From the sequence record NZ_CP102839.1: a DNA stretch of 64,000 nucleotides. The stretch is one strand, 5' to 3'. The stretch comes from a plasmid. Below are positions 1,202 through 62,944 of the stretch, piece by piece (within the stretch, counting starts at the first letter, position 1; every line of letters begins with the position of its first letter). The notes beneath the pieces are model-generated. The model searched no databases. It saw only the letters and a list, made by a program, of their open reading frames with translations, and was not told where the DNA came from. Both the position numbers and the translations under genes were made by a program.

Positions 1202-1735
1202 CAAATTGTCGTCTCCAGGTCATTTGGTGAGCGTGTAACCAGCTTTCAGGAAATGCAGATGGCCATCACCGGCTTTGCTGCGCGGGCAGGAGAAAAGCTG
1301 CGTCAGGAAAAGCAGCACTGTCGTGCGATCAGTGTCTTTATCCGAACCAGCCCGTTTTCACCCCGGGATGCGCCCTGTGCCAGCCAGGCGACGGAGACGC
1401 TACTGGTAGCCACTCAGGACAGCCGGGACATCATTGCCGCTGCCCAGCGTGCGCTTGCGCGCATCTGGCGTGATGGCTACCGGTACGCAAAGGCTGGTAT
1501 CATGCTGGCCGATTTTTCCGGCCGCGAGGCACAACTTAATCTGTTTGATGAATGTGCTCCCCGTCCTGACAGCGAAGCCCTGATGAATGCCGTCGATCGG
1601 ATTAACCGCGCCGGTAAGGGCCGCATTTTTTTTGCCGGCCAGGGGATCAATGTGGGGTTCGCGATGCGCAGGGAAATGCTGAGTCCGGAATACACGACAG
1701 ACTGGAACGCCTTGCCGCGTGCTTTCATGAGATAA
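1202..1735 (+). pseudogene. umuC: umuC (Y-family polymerase V) C-terminal fragment
   Basis: Translation ...VVSRSFGERVTSFQEMQMAITGFAARAGEKLRQEKQHCRAISVFIRTSPF...YRYAKAGIMLADF...QLNLFDE...MLSPEYTT aligns to UmuC residues about 245 to the end. The reading frame enters at 1202 with no N-terminal polymerase domain. The missing N-terminal half is at 57139-57876. Confidence 0.75.
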
Positions 1736-1881
1736 GCGATATCTGGATTTTATAGATGTAAAATCATATGGTTACATTATTAACGTATGGTTCTTCCCCA
1801 TTGGGCTTCAGACCTCCTGTACCGCGTTTTCCTGTTGAGACAACACCTACCCGGCGAAAACTAAAACCGGGTAGGATGTCA

Positions 1882-2163
1882 TCAGTACAGGGCAATGACA
1901 GGTTTTTTGATGCCGCAGGCGTGAGCGTAGCGGGTCAGAGTGTCGATGCTGGCTTTGGTGATGTTGTTTTCCAGGCGGGAAATAACCGGAGGTGTAACCC
2001 CCATGCGTTCAGCAACCTGCGCTTTTGTCAGGTTGTCATGTTTACGCCATTCCGCAAGTAGCTCTCTGAGCTTCTCCTTGCGTTCTTCTTCCTGCCATGC
2101 AGCGCGATATTCGTCGTCCTGCATCCACTCGTTATGCAGTTCTTTATGGCTTACCAGTTTCAT
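1882..2163 (-). CDS. higA: HigA-type antitoxin (XRE HTH)
   Basis: 93 aa containing ...LTKAQVAERMGVTPPVISRLENN..., an XRE-family HTH. It overlaps the upstream toxin gene by 20 nt. Confidence 0.7.
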   Translation of the reverse strand: MKLVSHKELHNEWMQDDEYRAAWQEEERKEKLRELLAEWRKHDNLTKAQVAERMGVTPPVISRLENNITKASIDTLTRYAHACGIKKPVIALY

Positions 2164-2474
2164 TAAGTACCTCCGCTAACCGCTTTTTGGCGAGATCGAT
2201 TTCTTTCGCTGGCGTTTTCTGTGACTTCTTGATGAAAACCCGGAGCATGATGATGGTATTGCCTTTGTGGTATACCCAGATGCCCCTGGCTATGTCCGTC
2301 CCCATCGTGCGGATCTCAAAAAGTCCATCGCCCAGGGGCTTCGTGTCCGGCTCCCGCAGTAATCGGGCATCATACTCCAGTTTGCCGATGAGACGGTCAA
2401 ACTTCACCCTGATTTTTACGGGTAATGCTGTGGCTTCTTCCCTGGCTTCCGGGTGATAAACAACGCTAAACATG
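2144..2474 (-). CDS. higB: HigB-like toxin (RelE/ParE superfamily, Gp49/DUF891 type)
   Basis: MFSVVYHPEAREEATALPVKIRVKFDRLIGKLEYDARLLREPDTKPLGDGLFEIRTMG...MLRVFIKKSQKTP. Conserved GLFELR and F-KK-QKTP motifs. The toxin-before-antitoxin order is typical of higBA. Confidence 0.6.
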
Positions 2475-2708
2475 TGACCTCCCATTTCCATTAATATTAA
2501 CCTATAGGCTAATGTTAGGCAAGGTGAAAATTAACCTGTAAGCTAATTTTTAGGGAGGGGTATGCGACCAGCTATGACACGGACCCAGCATTGACAAAAG
2601 GCTCTAAAATTGTATTTTTTAACTTTTACGTTCCTTTTTACATCAGTGCCTTAACATTTTTTCTATGTACTGAACGAAGGGATAATTTTGAGACAAGGAT
2701 ACAATTAT

Positions 2709-3350
2709 ATGAAAGTGAATTATCTGGCACCGTTATTATGTATTGGCGTGTTGGCGCTGACCGGTTGTAACGATCCAAAGAAACCCTCCGAAAGTAATTT
2801 CAAAGAAGCCGCACAGCAGTATCTGGATACTGTATACCCGGCATGTTATATCAAAGCTAATTTCCCTTACAAAACAGATGGTTTCAACATTAACAACATG
2901 CCAGAAATATTGCATGCAATGGCAGAAAAAGGGTTGTTAACTGAAACAGAATTATCGCGTAAACATATTGATGCCACATGGGGGATTAAAGAACGAGATA
3001 TAGTCGTTAACAGTTATGACCTGACGGAAGAAGGGAAAAAATACTACAAGCAAGATGCGGCTAAAAATATGCGAGGTGAGAATCTTGGTGGATTCTGCTT
3101 TGGAAAAGCAACAGTAACAGACGTCAGTAATTTCACTGAACCATCTGATGCAATGGGGCAGAAAATTTCCCGAGTGACTTTTACATATAAAGTTAGTGAT
3201 ATACCTGACTGGGCAAAATCACCTGAGATTCTGAATGCCGACCGTCAGATAAAAAAAGACGTAAACTCAGAACATGATGGTGTGAAAGTGACCAATGTTT
3301 TCCTCCTGACTAATAACGGATGGATACATCAAAAGTTATTTGGTAAATGA
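2709..3350 (+). CDS. putative lipoprotein
   Basis: MKVNYLAPLLCIGVLALTGCNDPKK gives a signal peptide plus LTGC lipobox. There is no recognisable catalytic domain. Confidence 0.5.
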   Translation: MKVNYLAPLLCIGVLALTGCNDPKKPSESNFKEAAQQYLDTVYPACYIKANFPYKTDGFNINNMPEILHAMAEKGLLTETELSRKHIDATWGIKERDIVVNSYDLTEEGKKYYKQDAAKNMRGENLGGFCFGKATVTDVSNFTEPSDAMGQKISRVTFTYKVSDIPDWAKSPEILNADRQIKKDVNSEHDGVKVTNVFLLTNNGWIHQKLFGK

Positions 3351-3489
3351 TTAACCCTAAGTGATAGGGCGTGTTTTGAGATAGTTAGCGAAGATGAGGC
3401 ACTTGCGGTTATCTGGCCGTGAGTGCCTGGACGGTACGTTCACCTCTGAAAAAACAGGCCTGCCGCTCTGACGAGGCCTGTTTTAATTC

Positions 3490-3774
3490 TCAGATATAAA
3501 CTGTCCAGAAAATGGCGATGGCAGTAAAGAAAATCGCCATTTTAAACGATGCTCTGGTTTTCCTTTCCTCCGCAGAAATCATCGCGTGGAGTGCTTCTTT
3601 TTTATCATGTATGGTTAAACTGCCAGGCAGTTCAGGCCACCTTTTCTGTAACTGCATGGTTTCCAGTTTCTTCAGTGAGGACTGATTATAAACCCCGTAC
3701 GCCCACAGCAGTAATGCCAGTCCCGGCGGCGTGAGCTTAATGAATAAATTAAAAATATCAGTTTCTTGGGTCAT
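3490..3774 (-). CDS. small membrane protein (hypothetical)
   Basis: 94-aa ORF with two hydrophobic segments. The opposite-strand ORF is not convincing. Confidence 0.3.
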   Translation of the reverse strand: MTQETDIFNLFIKLTPPGLALLLWAYGVYNQSSLKKLETMQLQKRWPELPGSLTIHDKKEALHAMISAEERKTRASFKMAIFFTAIAIFWTVYI

Positions 3775-3845
3775 CTGATTTCCTTTGTCTTCGTCAGGCA
3801 GTACAGGACTCTATAATAGAGGGATTCTGACGACGGACAACCATC

Positions 3846-4055
3846 CTACCGTGGTGCATAACCCTCTTCCGCCAGTGCTTTCATGAGCTGATTGATACCA
3901 TCCATCATCAGGTATGCCTCAATATCAGACGTTGCCAGCCGGCGGCAGTCACTGAATCCCTGCCGCTTGACCAGCTGTGCGAGCGCCTGTGCTTCCCTGT
4001 GCGTCAGCTGCAGATTCACCTCAACGGGTTTTTCATGGCGTATTTCATCATTCAT
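3846..4055 (-). CDS. hypothetical 69-aa protein, downstream partner of the RHH-HTH fusion gene
   Basis: Overlaps the upstream gene stop by 8 nt, which suggests translational coupling. Charged helical protein. Confidence 0.4.
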   Translation of the reverse strand: MNDEIRHEKPVEVNLQLTHREAQALAQLVKRQGFSDCRRLATSDIEAYLMMDGINQLMKALAEEGYAPR

Positions 4056-5106
4056 CGTCAGACTCCTGTTCTGTCGTACCGGTGTGGGTGGCGAGCCTGT
4101 AACGGGAACGTTGTTCGTCCATCCCGAAAGAGTAGCGCGTCAGCATCTCCAGGTCGTCCTTATCCATCAGACGTTGCTTCTCCTTCAGGTGCGCCATGAC
4201 CCTATTGATAATCTCCCGATCGTCCGGCCAGAAATACCCGCCGTTGCGTTCCGGATTGCGCTTACCCAGCATTTCTTCGTGCCAGATATCCTCCCACCAG
4301 ATGTTTTCCCGGCCGCAGCGTTTTGTGATCAGCAGCGGGTGACAGTCGTTCTCTTCAAATTCATACTTCAGCCGTCCCCGGGCGATATCGTAACTTTTCA
4401 CGAACACATCGTTAATGGTATAGAAAATATACAGCTGCTCGAGCATGGCGAAAAAATCGCACAGATCGTGAAAACCGGTATTGCCGACGTGTTCGCTCAG
4501 GTGGAGGTTAGTCCAGAAGATCTCCGCCTGCAGGCTGTTGCGGAACTCACGCAGGATGAGAATACTCCCCTCCGGGGAGTCTTCGCGGATGAGGCTGATC
4601 TTATAGACCGGATTGCCGGCGGCGTCTGGCGTCAGCAGGGCGCGCGCATCGTCATACGCGCTGCCGTGGCCGTTAAGGCGTCGCTGCGAACCGAACGCGA
4701 ACGGGCGTCCCTCGCCGAATTTCAGCCAGCGTGCGGAACAGCCCAGGTAAGTGGCCAGACGGTCGGCCTGCTCAAAATCCGGGACGTCGTGGCCGGAAAA
4801 CCAGTTCATCACCGCCAGTGGGTTGGCCTCACCGAGGCGCTCCGCCAGGGCGGCCGCGTCCATCGGCGGCTGGTAATTGGGGCCGGGGCGGGAGGCCGCT
4901 TCGTTGACCAGGGGTAACAGGTGCCTGAGGCGGGCGCTCAGCTCCCGGCGGTAACGATCGGCGCCGGTAAGAGCTGCTTCACGCTGCACGGACTGTGCGA
5001 TCACAAAACGGGCGTGCGCCTCGGTGCTGCGCTCCTGGCGGGCGGCTTCCTGCTCAAACTGCCTGTAGATTTCATCTGGGATGTTGCGGACGTTCAGACG
5101 CTGCAT
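4048..5106 (-). CDS. fusion protein: FitA/Arc-like ribbon-helix-helix N-terminus + XRE-like HTH + unknown 220-aa C-terminal domain
   Basis: N-terminus MQRLNVRNIPDEIYRQFEQEAARQERSTEAHARFVI resembles the FitA/VapB-type RHH antitoxin fold. The middle region ...LAVMNWFSGHDVPDFEQADRLATYLGCSARWLKFGEG looks like an HTH. The antisense 341-aa ORF 3892-4917 is R/V-rich noise. Confidence 0.55.
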   Translation of the reverse strand: MQRLNVRNIPDEIYRQFEQEAARQERSTEAHARFVIAQSVQREAALTGADRYRRELSARLRHLLPLVNEAASRPGPNYQPPMDAAALAERLGEANPLAVMNWFSGHDVPDFEQADRLATYLGCSARWLKFGEGRPFAFGSQRRLNGHGSAYDDARALLTPDAAGNPVYKISLIREDSPEGSILILREFRNSLQAEIFWTNLHLSEHVGNTGFHDLCDFFAMLEQLYIFYTINDVFVKSYDIARGRLKYEFEENDCHPLLITKRCGRENIWWEDIWHEEMLGKRNPERNGGYFWPDDREIINRVMAHLKEKQRLMDKDDLEMLTRYSFGMDEQRSRYRLATHTGTTEQESDDE

Positions 5107-5890
5107 GGCGTTCTCCTGGCTGACTGATTTTCAGTCACTATGCCTGTCAGAATGCAATGAGTCAATATGTGATCGTTTGGTGTTTTTTGGTGTCTTCATA
5201 TGGTGATCATTTTGATGTCATCTTTATCAGGGAGTGTCGTTTTGCGGTCCGTTGCGGTTTAGCGGTATTCTCCGCAGCGCCGCCACTTATCCACCGTTTC
5301 TGTGGATAACGCTATATGTAGTGGCTCCGTCAGCTGAGAACGGCACAAGATATGGTGTCCGCGCCGGCAGCCGCGCGGCCGCTCCCCTGCCTTCCTTCCC
5401 CTGTTGATTTCGCTTTTCACGGTATTTACGTTTTTTCCGCAATTGTGGCACCGGCCAAAAGGTATTTTCCGGTGGTTGCGGGCGTAAAAGTCACAGGGTG
5501 AAAAAATAAGGGGGCAAATTATCAGCCGGCCTGATGTGTGAAGCCCGGCAGGGTTATACAGGGCAGGTGAAAAGGGACAGGGAGAAGCATCATGAAGACG
5601 CCAGGCATGCTGTTTGTGCTGCAGCTGTGCGCCGGGTTCCTGACGGGCCGTGATATCAGACAGGAAGTGCGCGTGAAAAAGACGACGAGTCCATTTTGCC
5701 CTTCAGTGCCTGTTTAACCGCCTCAAATGCTTCCTGATGTTTGATATCCATCGCGTCTCCTGTTGTGTTTACGGCGGATTTAGTGTTTTAATATGCATTA
5801 AAATGTTCAAATATGAACATTTTCAGACTGTAAACACAGGCGGAATATAACAAACTAATCCACCCGTACAGAGCATGGGAGTGCGGCGAA

Positions 5891-52048: not shown

Positions 52049-52517
52049 ATGGCTTGATAGTGTTACAACACACAGTGCTGCTATCGGCAGCGTGGTACAC
52101 TGACTTGCCTATAGAAACAGGGACTTCAATACGATCTTGAATGCGTTCAGGACTTAGCACTGCAGATTTTTTTGTGAGAAATCATATATATGCGATTATG
52201 TCATATATTGCATATATGCGTGGTTTTATTGTGAGCGATCATTCACGGATCTCCTTTTATAAATTGATCCTTGCTACGCAACATGGTAGTTTACAACGGT
52301 TTGTAGGAATTACTTGGGTGGGACGTTCCCGGAATAGCGTCCAAAGGGAAGGGGTGATGAATTTACGGCCCCTGAATGCAAAAACCCCCTGAAATCTGCT
52401 ATCAACTTGGCGGTGGATTCAGAAATCAGGGGGTCCAAAAGCAGGCGCTGGCCTGTGAAGGATTATAGCAAATGCAGATTCTAACACAACCCCCACTCGC
52501 CATAAGTTCGGGCGGGT

Positions 52518-53213
52518 GTGACTGAAACAAGTCTCCATCTTAAAACCCGGCCTACGGGCATACCCAATCAGACCCCTTGCTATAACGTGGCTTCGCGCCG
52601 CCGCCGCCGGTTCCTGAACCGGTTGATCCGGTCACTGGCCACGCCTGCGGGGCGTCTGAAAATCACAGCAGAACTGCGCCGCCGCATCCGGTATAACAAG
52701 TATTGGGTCAATGAGGCAAACCGGTTCGGACTGGAAACGCTGTGTGAACTGTTGCTGGCCATCCTTGACGATCTTGATTTTAGAGACTGGCAAACCAGAC
52801 ACAACCTGGAAACGCTGGCCGAACGTGCCGGCTTGGCCACGCGCAGTCAATCCGGCCATGTGTCGATCTCCCGTGCCAGCCGGGGCTGTGACCGCTTGGT
52901 CTGGCTCAACGCTATCATTACAGAAAAAGCCCCCTTCAATCCTTATGACGCCCGCTGTGCCTGTAAGCACATCGAGGTCACAGAAGATTTCTTTGCCATT
53001 CTCGGCGTTCCGCTCAAGCAGGTTTACCGGGAGCGCGCACGGCTGCTGAACGTCGATCAGAATGAAGTCATCCACTCTGGTGATCAGCGGTTAATTGCGA
53101 TCAAGGTTGAAAACTGGATGCGTAAGGCCGCTGCCGGGTTAGCCAGGATGAAATCAAAGCGTGACGCCGCACGCCAGCTAAAACAAGCCTACTACGCTCT
53201 TACACCCGCCTGA
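52518..53213 (+). CDS. repA: RepA replication initiator (IncFII/IncI RepA family), GTG start
   Basis: ...ETLAERAGLATRSQSGHVSISRASRGCDRLVWLNAIITEKAPFNPYDARCACKHIEVTEDFFAILGV parallels the IncFII RepA1 core ...TLAIECGLATESAAGKLSITRATRALTFLSELGLI... At 231 aa it is shorter than typical RepA1/RepZ. Confidence 0.6.
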   Translation: MTETSLHLKTRPTGIPNQTPCYNVASRRRRRFLNRLIRSLATPAGRLKITAELRRRIRYNKYWVNEANRFGLETLCELLLAILDDLDFRDWQTRHNLETLAERAGLATRSQSGHVSISRASRGCDRLVWLNAIITEKAPFNPYDARCACKHIEVTEDFFAILGVPLKQVYRERARLLNVDQNEVIHSGDQRLIAIKVENWMRKAAAGLARMKSKRDAARQLKQAYYALTPA

Positions 53214-54119: not shown

Positions 54120-54734
54120 GTGAATCAGTCAGGAAAATCGGCCCATCTGGCGTGGTGTGCCCTGGTGGCGCTGGCCTTAGCCAGGCAGAACGGTGACGTG
54201 GTGTCACCGGCACAGGAAAATCTCTTTCTCACCCGCTGGCTGGCGACCGCGCTGAGACAACGTCGTTTTTCGCGCGATGTCGCTTCCGACATTGAGTGGC
54301 TGCTTAAACAGGGCCGTCAGCTGGGCGTCAATGCGCAGCTGGCCAGTAAGCTGAATTACCTGTGGCATTCCTGTACCGGCGAGTTGTCTGAGCAAAATGA
54401 TCTGTTCCGGCTGAACCATGCGCTGGAGGCAGCGAAGGCTATGAACTGGAATTACCGTGTGTTAAGCGACCGGGAATGGTCCGGCCGGAATGCCGTAACC
54501 CTGAATGCCGGCGTGAACGGCATTTATCTTTCACGCTCCAGTCTCGATGCCGCATTTGACGACGACGGCCGACAGATAAATCCTTTGTTGGTGCGTCTGA
54601 CAGGGAATGTACCGGGACTGGTGACGCTGTTTATCCGCAGTGACTGGCAGGTGCAGCCTGAAGGTGATGCCTCCCTGACTTATCTGCACCGATTGTTGGC
54701 CCGATCGGCTAAGCCGCGCGACAGCGCACCTTAG
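54120..54734 (+). CDS. hypothetical protein
   Basis: 204 aa with no recognisable motif. Confidence 0.35.
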   Translation: MNQSGKSAHLAWCALVALALARQNGDVVSPAQENLFLTRWLATALRQRRFSRDVASDIEWLLKQGRQLGVNAQLASKLNYLWHSCTGELSEQNDLFRLNHALEAAKAMNWNYRVLSDREWSGRNAVTLNAGVNGIYLSRSSLDAAFDDDGRQINPLLVRLTGNVPGLVTLFIRSDWQVQPEGDASLTYLHRLLARSAKPRDSAP

Positions 54735-54766
54735 CCCCACCTTCCCCCTTCGCTAAAACTGTATAT

Positions 54767-54784
54767 ACTGTTTATATGTACAGT
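54767..54784 (+). promoter_or_regulatory. LexA (SOS) box
   Basis: aCTGTttatatgtACAGt fits CTGT-N8-ACAG. It lies where the umuDC operator should be, but it is separated from umuD by the intron. Confidence 0.6.
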
Positions 54785-56705
54785 GTGCGCCGGGAGACCG
54801 GTTAGAGATCAAGGGGTGAAAGTCCCCGACCATTGAAGGACCAGCAATCCACAAGGTCCCCGAGTCATGCGTTGCATACCGCGAGGTATGGGGCGAAGCG
54901 TTGACAGGGGTGTTGACAGGCCAGCCATTGAGCCACGAAATGTATATTAAATTACCGGGTGCCGACGTTGTACTGTTAACGGAAGGCAACATCATAGGGT
55001 GCGATACTGCGAGTGCCACATGGACCCGGCGGGGTCTGAGACCCTGGCATGTCAATACGATCTCTACGCGGGAACCGGGAGATCTCCCCTCTGACCATCT
55101 GCCAGTGTCGGAGATGGCCCGCACCGGGAAGACGAGGAGTCATAGCCGGTGATGTACGGAGAGGAGAAGTCGGACTCGCTCATAGTAGCGGCGAAGCAGG
55201 CGAACAACCCGAAAGGAGCGGAGTCAGTGGAGCGAAGGAGCGGGGCCAAGGGGAACGCGGAACAGCCACACATGCGCCGGACACAGAGCCGGGAAAGCAT
55301 GTCACAGAGGCTGTCACGCGTGCGGGAAGCTGCGAAGCAGCGGAAGAAAGAACGGTTTACAGCATTGTTCCACCTGCTGACAGTCGAAGCACTGGAAGCC
55401 GCATTCCTCTCCCTGAGCAGGAAAGCGGCCGCCGGAGTGGATGGCATCAGGTGGATGGACTACGCCGGAAACATGAAGAACAACATAACAGATCTGCACC
55501 GGAGGCTACATCAGGGCAGCTACAGGGCGCAGCCCGGCAGGCGTCACTACATCCCAAAAGCGGATGGAAAACAACGCCCGCTCGGCATCGCCTCGCTGGA
55601 GGACAAGATCGTCCAGTATGCGCTGGTGAAAATCCTGAACGCAGTCTATGAAAACGACTTTATGGGGTTCTCATACGGGTTCAGACCCGGGCGAAGCCAG
55701 CACGATGCACTGGACGCACTGGCCACAGGGCTGGTACGCACTAACGTAAACTGGGTACTGGATGCCGACATCAGTCAGTTCTTCGACAGGGTGAGCCACG
55801 AATGGCTGATCAGGTTCACAGAGCATCGGATCGGCGACCGGAGGGTAATCAGGCTCATACGTAAGTGGCTCACAGCCGGGACGTCGGAGGAGGGTCAATG
55901 GCGAGCAACGGAGGAAGGCACCCCACAGGGTGCGGTCATCTCACCGCTGCTGGCAAACATATACCTCCACTACGTCTTCGATCTGTGGGCGCATCAGTGG
56001 CGACGTCGCTATGCCACAGGCAATGTGGTAATGGTCAGATACGCCGATGACATCGTCATCGGGTTCGACAAACGATACGATGCCCGGCGCTTCCGTATAG
56101 CCATGCAGCGCAGACTGAGGGAGTTCGGACTCACGGTTCACCCGGAGAAAACCCGTCTGATGGAGTTCGGCCGCTTCGCTGCCGAAAACCGTGCCATCAG
56201 GGGAAAAGGCAAACCAGAAACGTTCAACTTCCTCGGGTTCACGCACATCAGCGGGAAAGATCGCAACGGCAGGTTCATGCTGATACGAAAGACCCGCCGG
56301 GATCGGATGACGGCAACTCTGAAAGCCATCAAAGACGGTCTGCGAAGGCGCTGGCATTACTCAATCCCCGAACAGGGAAAATGGCTCAGGAGAGTGGTTC
56401 AGGGATACCTGAACTATCACTCGGTACCGGGCAACTTCCCCACCATGCAGAAGTTCAGGACACACGTAACAAACCTCTGGCGCCGGGCGCTCAGGCGCAG
56501 GAGCCAGAAGGATGATACGACCTGGACGAAAGCAAACAAACTGGCAGCCGCATGGCTACCAAGGGTTCGGGTTCTTCATCCATGGCCTGTGGAGCGGTTC
56601 ACCGCCAGACACCCGAGGCAGGAGCCCGGTGCGTAAATCGCGCACGCCGGGATCTGTGCGGGGGGTATCCGGTAACGGGTATCCCTACCGCGACAAAGAG
56701 GAGGG
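54785..56705 (+). mobile_element. bacterial group II intron with an intron-encoded RT/maturase
   Basis: 5' end GTGCGCCGGGAGACCGGUUAGAG... (GUGCG consensus). It encodes an RT/maturase. A domain-V-like hairpin with a GUAA tetraloop (gggtatccgGTAAcgggtatccc) lies at 56650-56675. The exact 3' boundary was not determined. Confidence 0.7.
55149..56636 (+). CDS. group II intron reverse transcriptase/maturase
   Basis: RT blocks including ...VRYADDIVIGF... (YADD) plus a maturase X domain. 495 aa. Confidence 0.9.
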   Translation: MMYGEEKSDSLIVAAKQANNPKGAESVERRSGAKGNAEQPHMRRTQSRESMSQRLSRVREAAKQRKKERFTALFHLLTVEALEAAFLSLSRKAAAGVDGIRWMDYAGNMKNNITDLHRRLHQGSYRAQPGRRHYIPKADGKQRPLGIASLEDKIVQYALVKILNAVYENDFMGFSYGFRPGRSQHDALDALATGLVRTNVNWVLDADISQFFDRVSHEWLIRFTEHRIGDRRVIRLIRKWLTAGTSEEGQWRATEEGTPQGAVISPLLANIYLHYVFDLWAHQWRRRYATGNVVMVRYADDIVIGFDKRYDARRFRIAMQRRLREFGLTVHPEKTRLMEFGRFAAENRAIRGKGKPETFNFLGFTHISGKDRNGRFMLIRKTRRDRMTATLKAIKDGLRRRWHYSIPEQGKWLRRVVQGYLNYHSVPGNFPTMQKFRTHVTNLWRRALRRRSQKDDTTWTKANKLAAAWLPRVRVLHPWPVERFTARHPRQEPGA

Positions 56706-56713
56706 TGTATGAC

Positions 56714-57139
56714 ATGCTTACTATCATTGAGCCCCGACCCGACACGCTGCTGCCGGGCCGGCCGATCTATACAGAACGCATTCCTGCAGGTTTTCCATCT
56801 CCTGCAGCTGGATATGAAAAGCAGGATCTGAACCTGCATGAATATTGCGTCAGACATCCCTCTGCAACCTATTTTCTGCGTGTGGAAGGCAACAGCATGG
56901 AAGACGCCCGGATTCACGATGGCGACGTACTGGTTGTCGATCGCGCCCTGGAGCCTGAGCACGGCAGTATTGTGATTGCCGCCGTGGACAATGAATTTAC
57001 CGTGAAGCGACTGCTGCTGCACCCCCGCCCCTGCCTGATGCCAATGAATCCTGCCTACAGCCCGCTCTATTTCGATCCTGACAGTGACACCGTGCAGCTG
57101 TGGGGCGTTGTCAGCCATTCTGTGATGAGACATCTGTAG
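56714..57139 (+). CDS. umuD: UmuD (LexA-like self-cleaving protease subunit of Pol V)
   Basis: MLTIIEPRPD...FPSPAAGYEKQDLNLHEY...FLRVEGNSMEDARIHDGDVLVVDR has the Ser-Lys dyad context and a C-G cleavage-site region. The ORF-track start 56552 lies inside the intron. Confidence 0.85.
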   Translation: MLTIIEPRPDTLLPGRPIYTERIPAGFPSPAAGYEKQDLNLHEYCVRHPSATYFLRVEGNSMEDARIHDGDVLVVDRALEPEHGSIVIAAVDNEFTVKRLLLHPRPCLMPMNPAYSPLYFDPDSDTVQLWGVVSHSVMRHL

Positions 57140-57876
57140 TGTTTGCCCTCATTGATGTAAACGGCATGTATGCCGCCTGTGAGAGTGCCTTCCGGCCTGA
57201 CCTGGCCAGCCGTGCGGTATGTTGCCTCAGCAACAACGACGGGGCGATCGTGGCCCGGAACCGGCTTGCAAAACTGGCAGGACTGAAAATGGGGGAACCC
57301 TATTTCAAAGCGAGGCCGCTTATTGAAGCGCATAACGTGGCCGTATTCAGTTCAAACTACACCCTGTATGCCTCCATGTCAGCGCGTTTTGCGGCGGTAG
57401 TGGAATCGCTGTCTTCCCGTGTGGAGCAGTATTCAATTGACGAACTCTTTGTGGACTGTCGTGGGATGGAAACGGCAATGAACCTGGAGGCATTCGGGCA
57501 TCAGCTGCGGCGTGAAGTGCAACGTCATACGACGCTGACCTGTGGAGTGGGCGTCAGTTTTACCAAAACGCTGGCAAAACTGTGTAATCACGCCGCCAAG
57601 ACCTGGCCAGCCACCAGGGGCGTGGTTGCCCTGACTGACGAGCGCAGACTGCATAAACTGATGGCCATTCTGCCTGCGGCCGAAGTCTGGGGAGTGGGAA
57701 GGCGCATATCAGCGCGGCTTGAAACGATGGGGATCAGAACGGCGCTGGATCTGATGCGGGCTGATACCCGGTTTATCCGGAGTAATTTCAGTGTGACGCT
57801 GGAAAGAACGGTGCGGGAGTTACGTGGCGAAATCTGCTTTGGCCTCGATGAAAACCCGGCAACCAAACAGCAAATT
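57139..57876 (+). pseudogene. umuC: umuC N-terminal fragment, truncated by a Tn1721-like inverted repeat
   Basis: The GTG overlaps the umuD stop (TAGTG). VFALIDVNGMYAACESAFRPDL...SNNDGAIVARN... aligns to UmuC residues 1 to about 245. The frame continues into the IR and stops after a nonsense tail. Confidence 0.75.
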
Positions 57877-57914
57877 GGGGGAACCGCAGAATTCGGAAAA
57901 AATCGTACGCTAAG
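57877..57914 (+). repeat. Tn1721/Tn501-group 38-bp terminal inverted repeat
   Basis: GGGGgAACCGCAGAATTCGGAAAAAATCGTACGCTAAG is near-identical to the Tn1721 IR (GGGGAGCCCGCAGAATTCGGAAAAAATCGTACGCTAAG, from memory). Confidence 0.6.
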
Positions 57915-58065
57915 CTAACGGTGTTCTCGTGACAGCTCTTTGACTAGGCTTTCTAAGGCCATTCTGATAGCCCTGACTTCCTGAAAAGCCATGGCTAAAA
58001 TTTGTGCGGCTAAAAGGGATAACCGATGGTAAAGTAAGTTATCCCTGTCGAGATACTGAAAAGCG

Positions 58066-59583
58066 TTATCCTCGTTTTTCCCAAAACTGTTTTGCCAGTT
58101 CGCTCAGAGCGCTAGTTAACTGAGCGACAGATTTCGCACTTTGCAAATTATTCTGCCCGGTCTGTACATTGGTATCAGCAGCATCGCGTATATTGATAAT
58201 ACTGCGGTTTATGTCTTCACTTACTGCTCCCTGCTGCTCGACCGCAGTCGCTATTTGCGCGTTCATGTCGGTAATTTCGTTAACGCGTTGGCCAATTCCA
58301 TCAAGAGCTGTAGCTGCTTCCTCTGCGTGAGCTACACTCGTGTGCGCTTGCCGACTACTTTGCTCCATGACTGTAACAGCGGATTGCGCTCGCTCTTGTA
58401 GAGCGCTGATCATGCTTTGAATATCCGTTGTCGATTGCTGTGTGCGAGCAGCAAGACTGCGAACCTCATCGGCGACAACAGCAAAACCACGCCCCTGCTC
58501 ACCAGCACGCGCGGCCTCAATTGCTGCGTTGAGTGCCAACAAATTCGTTTGCTCGGCGATCCCTCGTATAACGTCAAGAACTTTTGATATCTCGTTACTT
58601 TGACCTTCAAGCTCATGAATAACCTGAGTGGCTTGCCTAATTTCACCTTCAAGGGCAGTGATTGACTGGCTTGTGTGGGCTACCAGACGCTGGCCAGATG
58701 CCGTCTCAGTGTCTGCTCTTCCGGCCGCATCTGCAGCATGCTGTGCATTGCTCGCAACCTCTTGAATGCTTGCCACCATTTGGTTTACTGCCGTTGCTAT
58801 TTGATCTGTCTCTGCCTGCTGCTCAACTGTAAGTACATTGCTTGACTCAATATCCTTTAGTAGGCCTCGGGTGTGTTCGCTAAGCCGATTTGATGCATCA
58901 CCTATGCGACCTACTATGGCGCCTGTTTCAGCTTGCATCATTCGTAAAGCAAACTCTATTTGGCCAAACTCATCGGTGCGCCCAGTGTAGAGGGATTGAC
59001 TTAATGGGTTATTGGAAATATTCCTGGCTCTTTCAACCAGTCTTCCAAGAGGAGAGAGAATAGCCAAAACACTAACAGAGCTTAAGCTTCCTGACATTAA
59101 AGTGGCTAACAATAAGCTGCTTATTGATGTATCAGTAAGCATGCCGGCAGCCATTGCGCTTGATATAATACTACCCCATATGAGCAAGAGTATTTTCACG
59201 GAAAAGCTAGCAGCCAATTTCGGCCTCGCGGCCTTCCCGCTTCTCAATTGAGCATATAATTTTTCCGCAGCCAAAACCTGCTCAGGTTCAGGCTTGGTCC
59301 TTACAGACTGGTATTCAACAATCGAACCATTCTTAGCTATTGGCGTTACATAAGCACTTACCCAATAGTGGTCGCCATTTTTACAGCGATTTTTTACTAG
59401 CCCCATCCATGAGCGGCCAGATTTTAATGTACTCCACATATGCTCAAATGCAGCAGGCGGCATATCTGGGTGTCTTACGATGTTGTGAGGCTGGCCTAAT
59501 AGTTCTTCCTCAGTGAAACCACTGATTTTAATGAAGTCAGGATTAACGTACGTGATATGGCTTTGAGGGGAGGTAGTCGAAAG
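58066..59583 (-). pseudogene. methyl-accepting chemotaxis protein remnant (PAS + HAMP + MCP signalling domain), Tn1721 orfI/mcp-like, 5'-truncated by IS26
   Basis: The MCP highly conserved domain ...[35 protein letters not shown]... and a PAS-like N-terminal region. The 702-aa ORF in the track is an artefactual fusion with the antisense ORF inside IS26. Confidence 0.7.
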
Positions 59584-60403
59584 GGCACTGTTGCAAATAG
59601 TCGGTGGTGATAAACTTATCATCCCCTTTTGCTGATGGAGCTGCACATGAACCCATTCAAAGGCCGGCATTTTCAGCGTGACATCATTCTGTGGGCCGTA
59701 CGCTGGTACTGCAAATACGGCATCAGTTACCGTGAGCTGCAGGAGATGCTGGCTGAACGCGGAGTGAATGTCGATCACTCCACGATTTACCGCTGGGTTC
59801 AGCGTTATGCGCCTGAAATGGAAAAACGGCTGCGCTGGTACTGGCGTAACCCTTCCGATCTTTGCCCGTGGCACATGGATGAAACCTACGTGAAGGTCAA
59901 TGGCCGCTGGGCGTATCTGTACCGGGCCGTCGACAGCCGGGGCCGCACTGTCGATTTTTATCTCTCCTCCCGTCGTAACAGCAAAGCTGCATACCGGTTT
60001 CTGGGTAAAATCCTCAACAACGTGAAGAAGTGGCAGATCCCGCGATTCATCAACACGGATAAAGCGCCCGCCTATGGTCGCGCGCTTGCTCTGCTCAAAC
60101 GCGAAGGCCGGTGCCCGTCTGACGTTGAACACCGACAGATTAAGTACCGGAACAACGTGATTGAATGCGATCATGGCAAACTGAAACGGATAATCGGCGC
60201 CACGCTGGGATTTAAATCCATGAAGACGGCTTACGCCACCATCAAAGGTATTGAGGTGATGCGTGCACTACGCAAAGGCCAGGCCTCAGCATTTTATTAT
60301 GGTGATCCCCTGGGCGAAATGCGCCTGGTAAGCAGAGTTTTTGAAATGTAAGGCCTTTGAATAAGACAAAAGGCTGCCTCATCGCTAACTTTGCAACAGT
60401 GCC
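59584..60403 (+). mobile_element. IS26 (IS6 family), copy 1
   Basis: 820 bp bounded by the 14-bp IRs GGCACTGTTGCAAA and TTTGCAACAGTGCC. It is identical in sequence to copy 2. Confidence 0.95.
59629..60351 (+). CDS. tnpA: IS26 transposase Tnp26
   Basis: [54 protein letters not shown]... (240 aa including the leader as called). Confidence 0.95.
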
Positions 60404-61301: not shown

Positions 61302-62315
61302 CTACCTCTCACTAGTGAGGGGCGGCAGCGCATCAAGCGGTGAGCGCACTCCGGCACCGCCAACTTTCAGCACATGCGTGTAAATCATCGTCGTAGAGAC
61401 GTCGGAATGGCCGAGCAGATCCTGCACGGTTCGAATGTCGTAACCGCTGCGGAGCAAGGCCGTCGCGAACGAGTGGCGGAGGGTGTGCGGTGTGGCGGGC
61501 TTCGTGATGCCTGCTTGTTCTACGGCACGTTTGAAGGCGCGCTGAAAGGTCTGGTCATACATGTGATGGCGACGCACGACACCGCTCCGTGGATCGGTCG
61601 AATGCGTGTGCTGCGCAAAAACCCAGAACCACGGCCAGGAATGCCCGGCGCGCGGATACTTCCGCTCAAGGGCGTCGGGAAGCGCAACGCCGCTGCGGCC
61701 CTCGGCCTGGTCCTTCAGCCACCATGCCCGTGCACGCGACAGCTGCTCGCGCAGGCTGGGTGCCAAGCTCTCGGGTAACATCAAGGCCCGATCCTTGGAG
61801 CCCTTGCCCTCCCGCACGATGATCGTGCCGTGATCGAAATCCAGATCCTTGACCCGCAGTTGCAAACCCTCACTGATCCGCATGCCCGTTCCATACAGAA
61901 GCTGGGCGAACAAACGATGCTCGCCTTCCAGAAAACCGAGGATGCGAACCACTTCATCCGGGGTCAGCACCACCGGCAAGCGCCGCGACGGCCGAGGTCT
62001 TCCGATCTCCTGAAGCCAGGGCAGATCCGTGCACAGCACCTTGCCGTAGAAGAACAGCAAGGCCGCCAATGCCTGACGATGCGTGGAGACCGAAACCTTG
62101 CGCTCGTTCGCCAGCCAGGACAGAAATGCCTCGACTTCGCTGCTGCCCAAGGTTGCCGGGTGACGCACACCGTGGAAACGGATGAAGGCACGAACCCAGT
62201 GGACATAAGCCTGTTCGGTTCGTAAACTGTAATGCAAGTAGCGTATGCGCTCACGCAACTGGTCCAGAACCTTGACCGAACGCAGCGGTGGTAACGGCGC
62301 AGTGGCGGTTTTCAT
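61302..62315 (-). CDS. intI1: class 1 integron integrase IntI1
   Basis: 337-aa [53 protein letters not shown]... is the canonical IntI1. Confidence 0.95.
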
Positions 62316-62461
62316 GGCTTGTTATGACTGTTTTTTTGTACAGTCTATGCCTCGGGCATCCAAGCAGCAAGCGCGTTACGCCGTGGGTCGATGTTTGATG
62401 TTATGGAGCAGCAACGATGTTACGCAGCAGGGCAGTCGCCCTAAAACAAAGTTAACCCAGG
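62316..62461 (+). promoter_or_regulatory. attI1 / cassette-expression region of the 5'-CS
   Basis: Sequence between the intI1 start and the first cassette. The Pc promoter lies within the intI1 5' end. Confidence 0.45.
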
Positions 62462-62944
62462 ATGAGAACCTTGAAAGTATCATTGATGGCTGCGAAAGCG
62501 AAAAACGGCGTGATTGGTTGCGGTCCAGACATACCCTGGTCCGCGAAAGGGGAGCAGCTACTTTTTAAAGCATTGACCTACAATCAGTGGCTTCTGGTGG
62601 GTCGCAAGACGTTTGAATCTATGGGCGCACTCCCCAATAGGAAATACGCGGTCGTTACCCGCTCAGGTTGGACATCAAATGATGACAATGTAGTTGTATT
62701 TCAGTCAATCGAAGAGGCCATGGACAGGCTAGCTGAATTCACCGGTCACGTTATAGTGTCTGGTGGCGGAGAAATTTACCGAGAAACATTACCCATGGCC
62801 TCTACGCTCCACTTATCGACGATCGACATCGAGCCAGAGGGGGATGTTTTCTTCCCGAGTATTCCAAATACCTTCGAAGTTGTTTTTGAGCAACACTTTA
62901 CTTCAAACATTAACTATTGCTATCAAATTTGGAAAAAGGGTTAA
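62462..62944 (+). CDS. dfrA14: trimethoprim-resistant dihydrofolate reductase cassette (dfrA5/dfrA14 group)
   Basis: ...[64 protein letters not shown]...[12 protein letters not shown] likely TTG start at 62471 would give 157 aa. Choosing between dfrA5 and dfrA14 requires a database comparison. Confidence 0.85.

Follow-up and report, generated by a model that had tools for sequence, protein, structure and literature searches.

The window analysed here, a 64,000-nucleotide stretch of plasmid DNA (sequence record NZ_CP102839.1), carries a complete group II intron of 1910 nt upstream of umuD in a umuDC mutagenesis operon, at positions 54785-56694 of the + strand and in sense orientation to umuD. 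By the accession of its intron-encoded protein (IEP), which it has in common with the plasmid pK245, the element is the known mobile group II intron Kl.pn.I5. We consider it very likely, from the sequence comparisons set out below, that the window holds an active copy of this endonuclease-less intron and that the natural homing site of Kl.pn.I5 is the LexA operator itself. An earlier, sequence-only reading of the window had taken the meeting of intron and LexA box as a peculiarity of the umuDC operon. This proved too narrow: dozens of different LexA boxes hold the same intron directly after ...ACAGT, with operator position 19 on one side and position 20 on the other; either strand of the palindrome can be used, and both orientations occur.

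The gammaproteobacterial LexA operator has the consensus TACTGTATATATATACAGTA, a CTGT-N8-ACAG palindrome with an AT-rich spacer. The homing sites known for group II introns are single genes, insertion sequences (IS), terminators or attC sites. Homing to the operator of a transcription factor would add a new kind of target, present dozens of times in a genome and also on many plasmids and phages. In the full-text literature searched, which was that available without subscription, we found no description of homing to LexA operators, and Kl.pn.I5 and its synonym Se.ma.I1 receive only annotation-level mentions. Nor does that literature appear to describe, as a homing target, a repressor operator that recurs throughout a regulon and is used in either orientation. 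Leclercq and Cordaux (2012) derived a homing consensus for Kl.pn.I5 (-25 to +10) from three copies and described plasmid-to-chromosome retrohoming (PMC3522654); their text mentions neither umuD nor a palindrome. During a hospital outbreak, two new insertions of Kl.pn.I5 were documented, the first 24 nt upstream of sbmC and the second next to umuD (PMC8269217, Table S2); the study makes no mention of LexA or SOS.

Both ends of the intron can be fixed to the base because plasmids without it carry its flanks joined together. As a query we used window positions 54535-54784 joined to 56695-56944 (250 nt per flank), searched in the PLSDB plasmid collection. In at least 87 plasmids one uninterrupted match covers 80% or more of this query, and the 40 matches listed are all full-length at 100% identity. 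In pMR0617tem, an intron-less example, the DUF2913 gene, the box and umuD are contiguous. The intron-less allele reads TACTGTTTATATGTACAGT/AAAGAGGAGGGTGTATGACATG, with the slash here and below marking the insertion point, and the uninterrupted 20-nt box is TACTGTTTATATGTACAGTA. The sequence-only reading had correctly recognized a group II intron that begins with GTGCG at 54785 and follows TACTGTTTATATGTACAGT at 54766-54784; the Rfam and reverse transcriptase (RT)/maturase matches obtained here support this. It had placed the insertion 1 nt downstream of the box, whereas the empty allele puts it inside a perfect 20-nt operator, between positions 19 and 20 (TACTGTTTATATGTACAGT/A). The 3' end falls at 56694 (...CCGCGAC), 19 nt before the umuD ATG. 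The boundaries GUGCG and ...GAC agree with the GUGYG/AY pattern of mobile group II introns. The Rfam scan for domains V and VI proposed for finding these boundaries (RF00029) gave no match at E<=1, and it was the empty sites that set the 3' end. In the intron-less alleles promoter and box both lie outside the intron, which answers the concern, raised with the sequence-only reading, that they might lie within it. That the LexA box is itself part of the mobile element can be rejected, as the empty alleles keep the full box and its sequence varies from site to site.

The identity of the element follows from close relatives. Plasmid p426-tetA is 100% identical to window positions 54600-56900, and IEP accession WP_004178082.1 is common to p426-tetA and to the ltrA gene of pK245, the Klebsiella pneumoniae plasmid (NC_010886) that is the reference host of Kl.pn.I5. 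Se.ma.I1 is a second name of the same intron (PMC6764390). The pK245 copy is the same element at another site: it lies antisense to the umuDC operon of an IncR plasmid, whereas the window copy is in sense orientation in an IncFII-type plasmid. Since the window copy matches the copies in pOXA-48-like plasmids at 100% identity and the same length of 1910 nt, a recent homing event is suggested.

Kl.pn.I5 is widespread. It is present in 4,274 of 72,556 plasmid records (about 6%), mostly from Klebsiella, with 3,426 at >=99% identity, and in 219 of 5,426 complete Escherichia coli genomes (about 4%), where it occupies 45 chromosomal and 230 plasmid places; four phage records also carry it. Host plasmids include pOXA-48-type and IncR carbapenemase plasmids. 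Most matches stop about 20 nt to the left and about 13 nt to the right of the intron, and the surrounding contexts differ.

To this distribution we added a survey of junctions, in which a 28-nt piece of the intron 5' region was scanned in species-representative genomes and metagenome contigs and the results were pooled with the loci collected earlier. The survey yielded 142 usable 5' junctions from plasmids, chromosomes, phages and metagenomes, with 69 distinct flanks (-25 to -1 relative to the intron) and 50 distinct 19-mers. The motif CTG-N10-CAGT directly precedes the intron in 59 of the 69 distinct flanks and 132 of the 142 junction records, including 18 of 18 readable junctions in the species-representative genomes. 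As the expectation by chance is about 6e-5 per site, this placement is far from random. The position profile of the 69 flanks is that of the LexA consensus: A-18, C-17, T-16, G-15 and T-14 each occur in 53-66 of them, and ACAGT at -5 to -1 in 64-68. The core is nearly invariant, with T-12 in all 69, only A or G at -11, T-10 in 68 and A-7 in 64. At +1, the distinct 3' exons have A (22 of 25) or G (3 of 25). Spread of one ancestral insertion by plasmid transfer is ruled out by the 50 distinct 19-nt boxes in unrelated contexts, among them chromosomal umuDC, sbmC and cho. Copies at different sites are 99-100% identical, which, like the two outbreak insertions, points indirectly to an element that is still mobile.

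The genes beside the occupied boxes include those for UmuD, SbmC and Cho (all above the NCBIfam cut-offs), a DinI-like protein, ImpC-like small proteins and cloacin. The intron may have either orientation to the regulated gene, which is on the other strand in about half of the classified flanks. Antisense copies occur in IncN-like plasmids at TACTGTATATACATACAGT/A, beside an impC-like gene and an S24 peptidase gene; in IncR plasmids at TACTGGTTATACATACAGT/A, beside umuDC; and in pOXA-48 at AACTGTTTATACATACAGT/A, beside a mucAB-like operon. Sense copies occur at the chromosomal umuDC box of E. coli (TACTGTATATAAAAACAGT/A), a classical LexA site, and before the cloacin gene of a ColE1-type plasmid (TACTGTGTATATATACAGT/A). 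The empty counterparts of the IncN-like and IncR sites read TACTGTATATGCATACAGT/A and TACTGGTTATACATACAGT/A, both intact boxes of 20 nt.

How could an intron read an operator? The complementarity between intron and target, together with covariation among relatives, suggests that the intron RNA reads it by base pairing. The candidate exon-binding site 1 (EBS1), ACUGU at 54972-54976, lies with the preceding U54971 in a hairpin loop of the Rfam consensus structure (54971-54976, + strand) and would pair with intron-binding site 1 (IBS1), the right arm ACAGT of the operator at -5 to -1 (54780-54784, +). The EBS2 candidate, AUGUAUAU at 54940-54947 (+), is in an internal loop of domain I that is unpaired in the same structure. 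It would pair with IBS2, the AT-rich spacer TTATATGT at -13 to -6 (54772-54779, +), where seven of eight positions can pair, two of them as G-U. U54971 could pair with A or G at +1. Across the survey, EBS1 pairs at five of five positions with -5 to -1 in 61 of 69 sites, and the EBS2 candidate pairs at six or more of eight positions with -13 to -6 in 65. The variation at -11, -9, -8 and -7 (A/G, A/G, T/C and A/G) is what wobble pairing permits. Of the two strands of each palindrome, the one in use gives the better pairing in 41 boxes and the poorer in 4; 14 boxes are ties. On the intron side, the EBS2 candidate is identical in 82 of 92 copies, and nearly all copies, even the variants of 92% identity, have the same loops. 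Two introns of Sinorhizobium fredii support both assignments because their loops covary with the 5' exon: the EBS1 loops of Kl.pn.I5 and of these two introns read ACUGU, CUCAU and CCCCG and their 5' exons end in ACAGU, GUGAG and CGGGG, respectively, and one of the two S. fredii introns has an internal loop GUGAU opposite AUCAC in the exon. The left arm of the operator lies outside the EBS footprint, yet it is conserved.

Combining these observations with what is known of RmInt1, we propose the following route. EBS1, EBS2 and the intron U would recognize the right arm, the spacer and the +1 base, respectively, and the left arm (ACTGT, -18 to -14) would be read by the IEP, by analogy with RmInt1 and with the distal 5' exon of other introns. 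The intron would then reverse-splice into single-stranded DNA at replication forks, and cDNA synthesis would be primed by the nascent strand, which we infer because the IEP has no endonuclease domain. Three papers describe the mechanism of endonuclease-less introns (PMC8914252, PMC5010178 and PMC6698660); the first two cover nascent-strand priming, and PMC8914252 has RmInt1 reverse-splicing mainly into single-stranded DNA of the lagging-strand template at forks. In the IncFII-type plasmid of the window, the intron would have entered the strand that gives it sense orientation, between the operator and the ribosome-binding site of umuD.

Several observations weigh against this reading. Ten of the 69 flanks are without an exact CTG-N10-CAGT; they are mostly single-base near-misses or boxes whose left half an IS has replaced, and about four appear to be genuinely ectopic. 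Short metagenome or draft contigs supply many of the junctions, and the distinct flanks are not all phylogenetically independent. Natural LexA boxes share a TATA-rich spacer, so that the complementarity of IBS2 may partly reflect the LexA consensus, and the spacer positions -13, -9, -8 and -6 tolerate mismatches. The ribozyme itself is atypical at its 3' end: Rfam RF00029, the model for domains V and VI, has no match in Kl.pn.I5 even at E<=1, and domain V has G-A where G-U is usual beneath the AGC triad. Finally, membership in an RmInt1-like lineage, with a place among the class D (IIB3) introns, is no more than suggested, by a DNA similarity of 65-67% to rhizobial introns and a shared Rfam subgroup.

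The domain I-IV core (54819-55044, +) matches Rfam RF02005 (group-II-D1D4-6) over the full length of the model with 186.6 bits (E = 1e-54; gathering score 49). Domain V was placed at 56622-56654 (+) by folding and hand reading, with the AGC triad at 56623-56625, an AC bulge at 56644-56645 and a loop of 5 nt that is not a GNRA tetraloop. Domain VI, placed by folding at 56658-56694 (+), has GUAA as its loop; its bulged A (56687) precedes the 3' splice site by 7 nt. The segment 56616-56694 folds at -44 kcal/mol (z = -3.7) into the domain V-like and domain VI hairpins. The IEP, an RT/maturase of 495 aa, is encoded by an open reading frame (ORF) of domain IV at 55149-56636 (+), the stop codon of which lies in the domain V loop. 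These peculiarities of domain V (the G-A, the 5-nt loop and the stop codon in it) probably explain why RF00029 misses it. The IEP matches TIGR04416 with 376 bits (cut-off 300) over residues 81-451. Pfam detects no endonuclease (HNH) domain in it, only RVT_1, and the NCBIfam coverage stops at residue 451 of 495. Its nearest relatives of solved structure are group II RTs, the best being GsI-IIC, the RT of a IIC intron (E = 8e-43), with LtrA at E = 8e-36; neither these structural matches nor an RT-classification paper indicates the class of the intron. The introns with 65-67% DNA identity to Kl.pn.I5 come from Sinorhizobium and Rhizobium plasmids and fall in the same Rfam subgroup, D1D4-6. On one of these plasmids, S. 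fredii pSF25509a, two related group II introns stand in tandem at 1679-5500, the first with a broken RT ORF and the second intact and matching RF00029, unlike Kl.pn.I5.

Should the window copy instead be understood as a one-off insertion into the umuDC leader, with LexA controlling transcription of the intron, umuDC depending on splicing, and DNA damage mobilizing the element through the SOS transcript? We regard this as doubtful, though some features of the locus speak for it. The intron is in sense orientation, the operator core CTGT-N8-ACAG is intact, and promoter and box stand outside the intron. Operator positions 1-19 (TACTGTTTATATGTACAGT, 54766-54784) are the last 19 nt of the 5' exon, and LexA repression should persist, because the occupied operator keeps 19 of 20 positions, with A20 changed to G. 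A scan of 54500-57000 detected no promoter-like or terminator-like sites on the + strand, including outward promoters internal to the intron, so that transcription of umuD must pass through the intron, as the sequence-only reading had argued. The 3' exon (56695-56713, +), which in the empty alleles runs on directly from the box, is the native leader of umuD, with A56695 as operator position 20 (IBS3 or delta'), and splicing would restore this leader exactly. In the ColE1-type cloacin plasmid, a strong TTGACA promoter stands upstream of the box, and the copy there would therefore be transcribed with its full 5' exon under LexA control.

The weight of the evidence is nevertheless on the other side. 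With the regulated gene on the other strand in about half of the dozens of LexA boxes that hold this intron, the arrangement cannot in general depend on coupling to the host transcript; antisense copies are out of reach of the SOS promoter, which reads away from the intron. In the window itself, the best promoter has a candidate -10 element, TATACT at 54764-54769 (+), that overlaps the first four operator bases and was found by consensus scoring only; a strict sigma-70 scan found no + strand promoter within 54500-57000, and TATACT emerged only with relaxed scoring. The candidate -35 element (TTCCCC, 54742-54747) is weak, and the predicted start is at about 54775-54777. The start cannot lie much further downstream, because the Shine-Dalgarno sequence (GGAGG, 56700-56704) comes only 6-10 nt after the box. 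The same arrangement of TA followed by TACT is found at the IncN-like and IncR boxes. A transcript from the umuD promoter would thus probably have a 5' exon of only 8-10 nt, comprising IBS1 and part of IBS2. Intron RNA with a full 5' exon could equally well arise by read-through from the DUF2913 gene upstream. Splicing-dependent expression need not follow: unspliced RNA still carries an intact umuD ORF with its Shine-Dalgarno sequence, and because the intron lies in the 5' untranslated region, translation of umuD in principle needs no splicing.

The mutagenesis operon of the window is, moreover, defective. The umuD gene (56714-57139, +) encodes 141 aa with a Peptidase_S24 domain (E = 4e-27) and is annotated as umuD in identical plasmids, in agreement with the start and the orientation first read. 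The following umuC' (57139-57918, +) encodes 259 aa, of which only the IMS N-terminal domain matches; the full-length protein of about 421 aa is present in pX39-1. As umuC is cut to 259 aa in both occupied and intron-less plasmids of the window backbone, its truncation predates the intron or is independent of it, and polymerase V cannot come from this locus, occupied or empty. SOS-coupled expression of the window copy is possible. Given the probable 5' exon of 8-10 nt and the umuC already truncated, the copy is best seen as a recent, nearly neutral homing event and not as an evolved regulatory device.

Two further explanations concern the target rather than the transcript. The operator could be recognized as a hairpin or cruciform in single-stranded DNA, in the manner of class C (IIC) introns, with the left arm important because it pairs with the right. 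The palindromic target, the IEP without endonuclease and its probable use of single-stranded fork DNA, the IIC intron RT as best-scoring solved homologue, and the conservation of a left arm outside the EBS footprint would all fit. This explanation is nonetheless improbable. Among the 50 distinct boxes we found no compensatory arm-to-arm changes, and G at -14, present in 7 of them, is never matched in the other arm. Moreover, intron loops are complementary to the spacer and right arm, and one of these loops is the EBS2 candidate, an element absent from IIC introns; IBS1 would sit inside the stem, whereas in IIC sites it comes after the hairpin; and the intron matches Rfam D1D4-6 together with the rhizobial introns. 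A target of the class C kind is accordingly not supported. Alternatively, the intron could insert wherever ...TATNNNNACAGT occurs, and only harmless intergenic copies in LexA boxes on successful plasmids would persist. A few ectopic sites (L058, L095 and L100) do have the right half of the motif without the left, and a handful of epidemic plasmid backbones account for most copies. Against such survivorship, which we judge very unlikely, the left-arm CTG stands at the exact spacing in 59 of 69 flanks, where the right-half motif alone predicts about 1 in 64; both insertions caught arising in the outbreak were at SOS genes (PMC8269217); and the antisense insertions, which split the likely -10 element of the host, are not obviously harmless.

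The comparison with known systems helps to place Kl.pn.I5. Like RmInt1 of Sinorhizobium meliloti, it has an IEP without an endonuclease domain and a target read by EBS1, EBS2 and the +1 base; RmInt1 homes to the insertion sequence ISRm2011-2, whereas the target of Kl.pn.I5 would be a transcription-factor operator repeated across a regulon. The IIC introns, including the IIC-attC intron Kl.pn.I3, are likewise endonuclease-less, use a repeated, structured motif in non-coding DNA (terminators or attC), occupy many intergenic sites and are common on resistance plasmids. They differ in having no EBS2 and a DNA stem-loop upstream of IBS1, whereas Kl.pn.I5 has an EBS2 candidate, no arm covariation and a protein-binding operator as target. 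With Ll.LtrB and EcI5, the targetrons, Kl.pn.I5 would share the retrohoming principle of EBS/IBS pairing together with IEP contacts in the distal 5' exon, and its IEP is homologous to theirs, which have DNA-binding and endonuclease domains and cleave the bottom strand, and their natural sites are in genes (the ltrB relaxase gene and a gene of pO157). The LexA-regulated intI1 promoter and the induction of colicins and prophages also tie mobile DNA to the SOS response through a LexA box. In those cases, however, LexA regulates a gene of the element, whereas for Kl.pn.I5 the box is a DNA target outside the element.

Preference for the operator would have consequences for the host. At the antisense sites the insertion splits the likely -10 element of the host operon (TAT/ACT) and moves the upstream promoter DNA 1.9 kb away, and antisense insertions probably silence host operons. 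Plasmid mutagenesis operons would often be disrupted, or at least separated from their promoters. New copies are predicted to land in SOS promoters such as those of umuDC, sbmC, cho and colicin genes. As a natural endonuclease-less intron with a short, well-defined and abundant target, Kl.pn.I5 may also serve gene targeting.

More tentatively, Kl.pn.I5 may be specialized on the SOS regulon as such. LexA would mask the operators in undamaged cells; damage would expose them while stalled forks provide single-stranded DNA and primers, and would induce those copies, the cloacin copy among them, whose LexA-controlled promoter gives a full 5' exon. Insertion would then come in bursts under antibiotic or UV stress, and resistance plasmids would be fused and reshuffled through the portable homology of identical copies at LexA boxes, which fits the flank combinations of the pK245 and pX39-1 type, for which there is no empty site. 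Antisense insertions would separate -10 from -35 elements and silence plasmid mutagenesis operons. This possibility, which we hold with reserve, would tie the spread of a retroelement to the DNA-damage response, also where antibiotics trigger it, and can be tested directly.

Mosaic flanks were seen in three plasmids, OW849352 (L001), pK245 (L156) and pX39-1 (L003), where umuDC of the IncR type on the left is joined to IncN-like or IncFII-like DNA on the right. For the flank combinations of pX39-1 and OW849352, no PLSDB record has an empty site at >=80% coverage. Two divergent umuDC operons sharing one box, as in pX39-1, can be ruled out as an ancestral target, since no such empty site was found whereas empty sites with the cognate partners exist. 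It seems that recombination between intron copies at different LexA boxes joins plasmid backbones, which would account simply for the mosaic junctions found between resistance plasmids. Where metagenome contigs show this pattern, it could come from chimeric assembly.

Other observations from the survey concern the copies themselves. In 16 of the 142 junctions (L009, L015, L027 and 11 metagenome loci among them; mostly at the IncR umuDC box), the intron begins with GTTCG, GTTCA or ATTCA and not with GTGCG; such copies are probably splicing-dead and immobilized. At two loci (L082 and L088) the end of an IS (...GGAAGACCC) directly adjoins the central ATAT of a LexA box in which the intron is also present, with a transposase-like ORF to the left, so that a second mobile element has inserted in the AT-rich centre of the operator. 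Short intron contigs with enterobacterial SOS-gene flanks (L016-L020, L022, L028-L030 and L032-L034) turned up in assemblies labelled as other taxa: Nocardiopsis, Leucobacter, Brevibacterium, Streptomyces, Actinomadura, Kitasatospora, Microbacterium, Pedobacter, Flammeovirga, Ramlibacter and others. The Kl.pn.I5 contigs in the Nocardiopsis, Streptomyces, Pedobacter and similar assemblies are most likely contamination.

The window holds a second LexA-like box, GACTGTTTTTTTGTACAGT/C, at 62326-62344 in the intI1 promoter, between intI1 (61302-62315, - strand) and attI. This box has no intron. The attI of the class 1 integron is marked by an Rfam match to AAC_AAD_leader at 62405-62477. On each strand the box departs from the target at two near-invariant positions (-11 and +1 for the + strand, -12 and -10 for the - strand), and its being empty fits that. 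Elsewhere around the locus, the region 58066-60351, 3' of umuC', has an ORF fragment on the - strand that resembles a methyl-accepting chemotaxis protein, followed by IS26 (59629-60351). An Rfam PK-repBA pseudoknot (94 bits) at 52383-52507 stands directly upstream of a RepA-like ORF of 231 aa (52518-53213). This region of plasmid replication control lies about 1.6 kb upstream of the DUF2913-umuD module.

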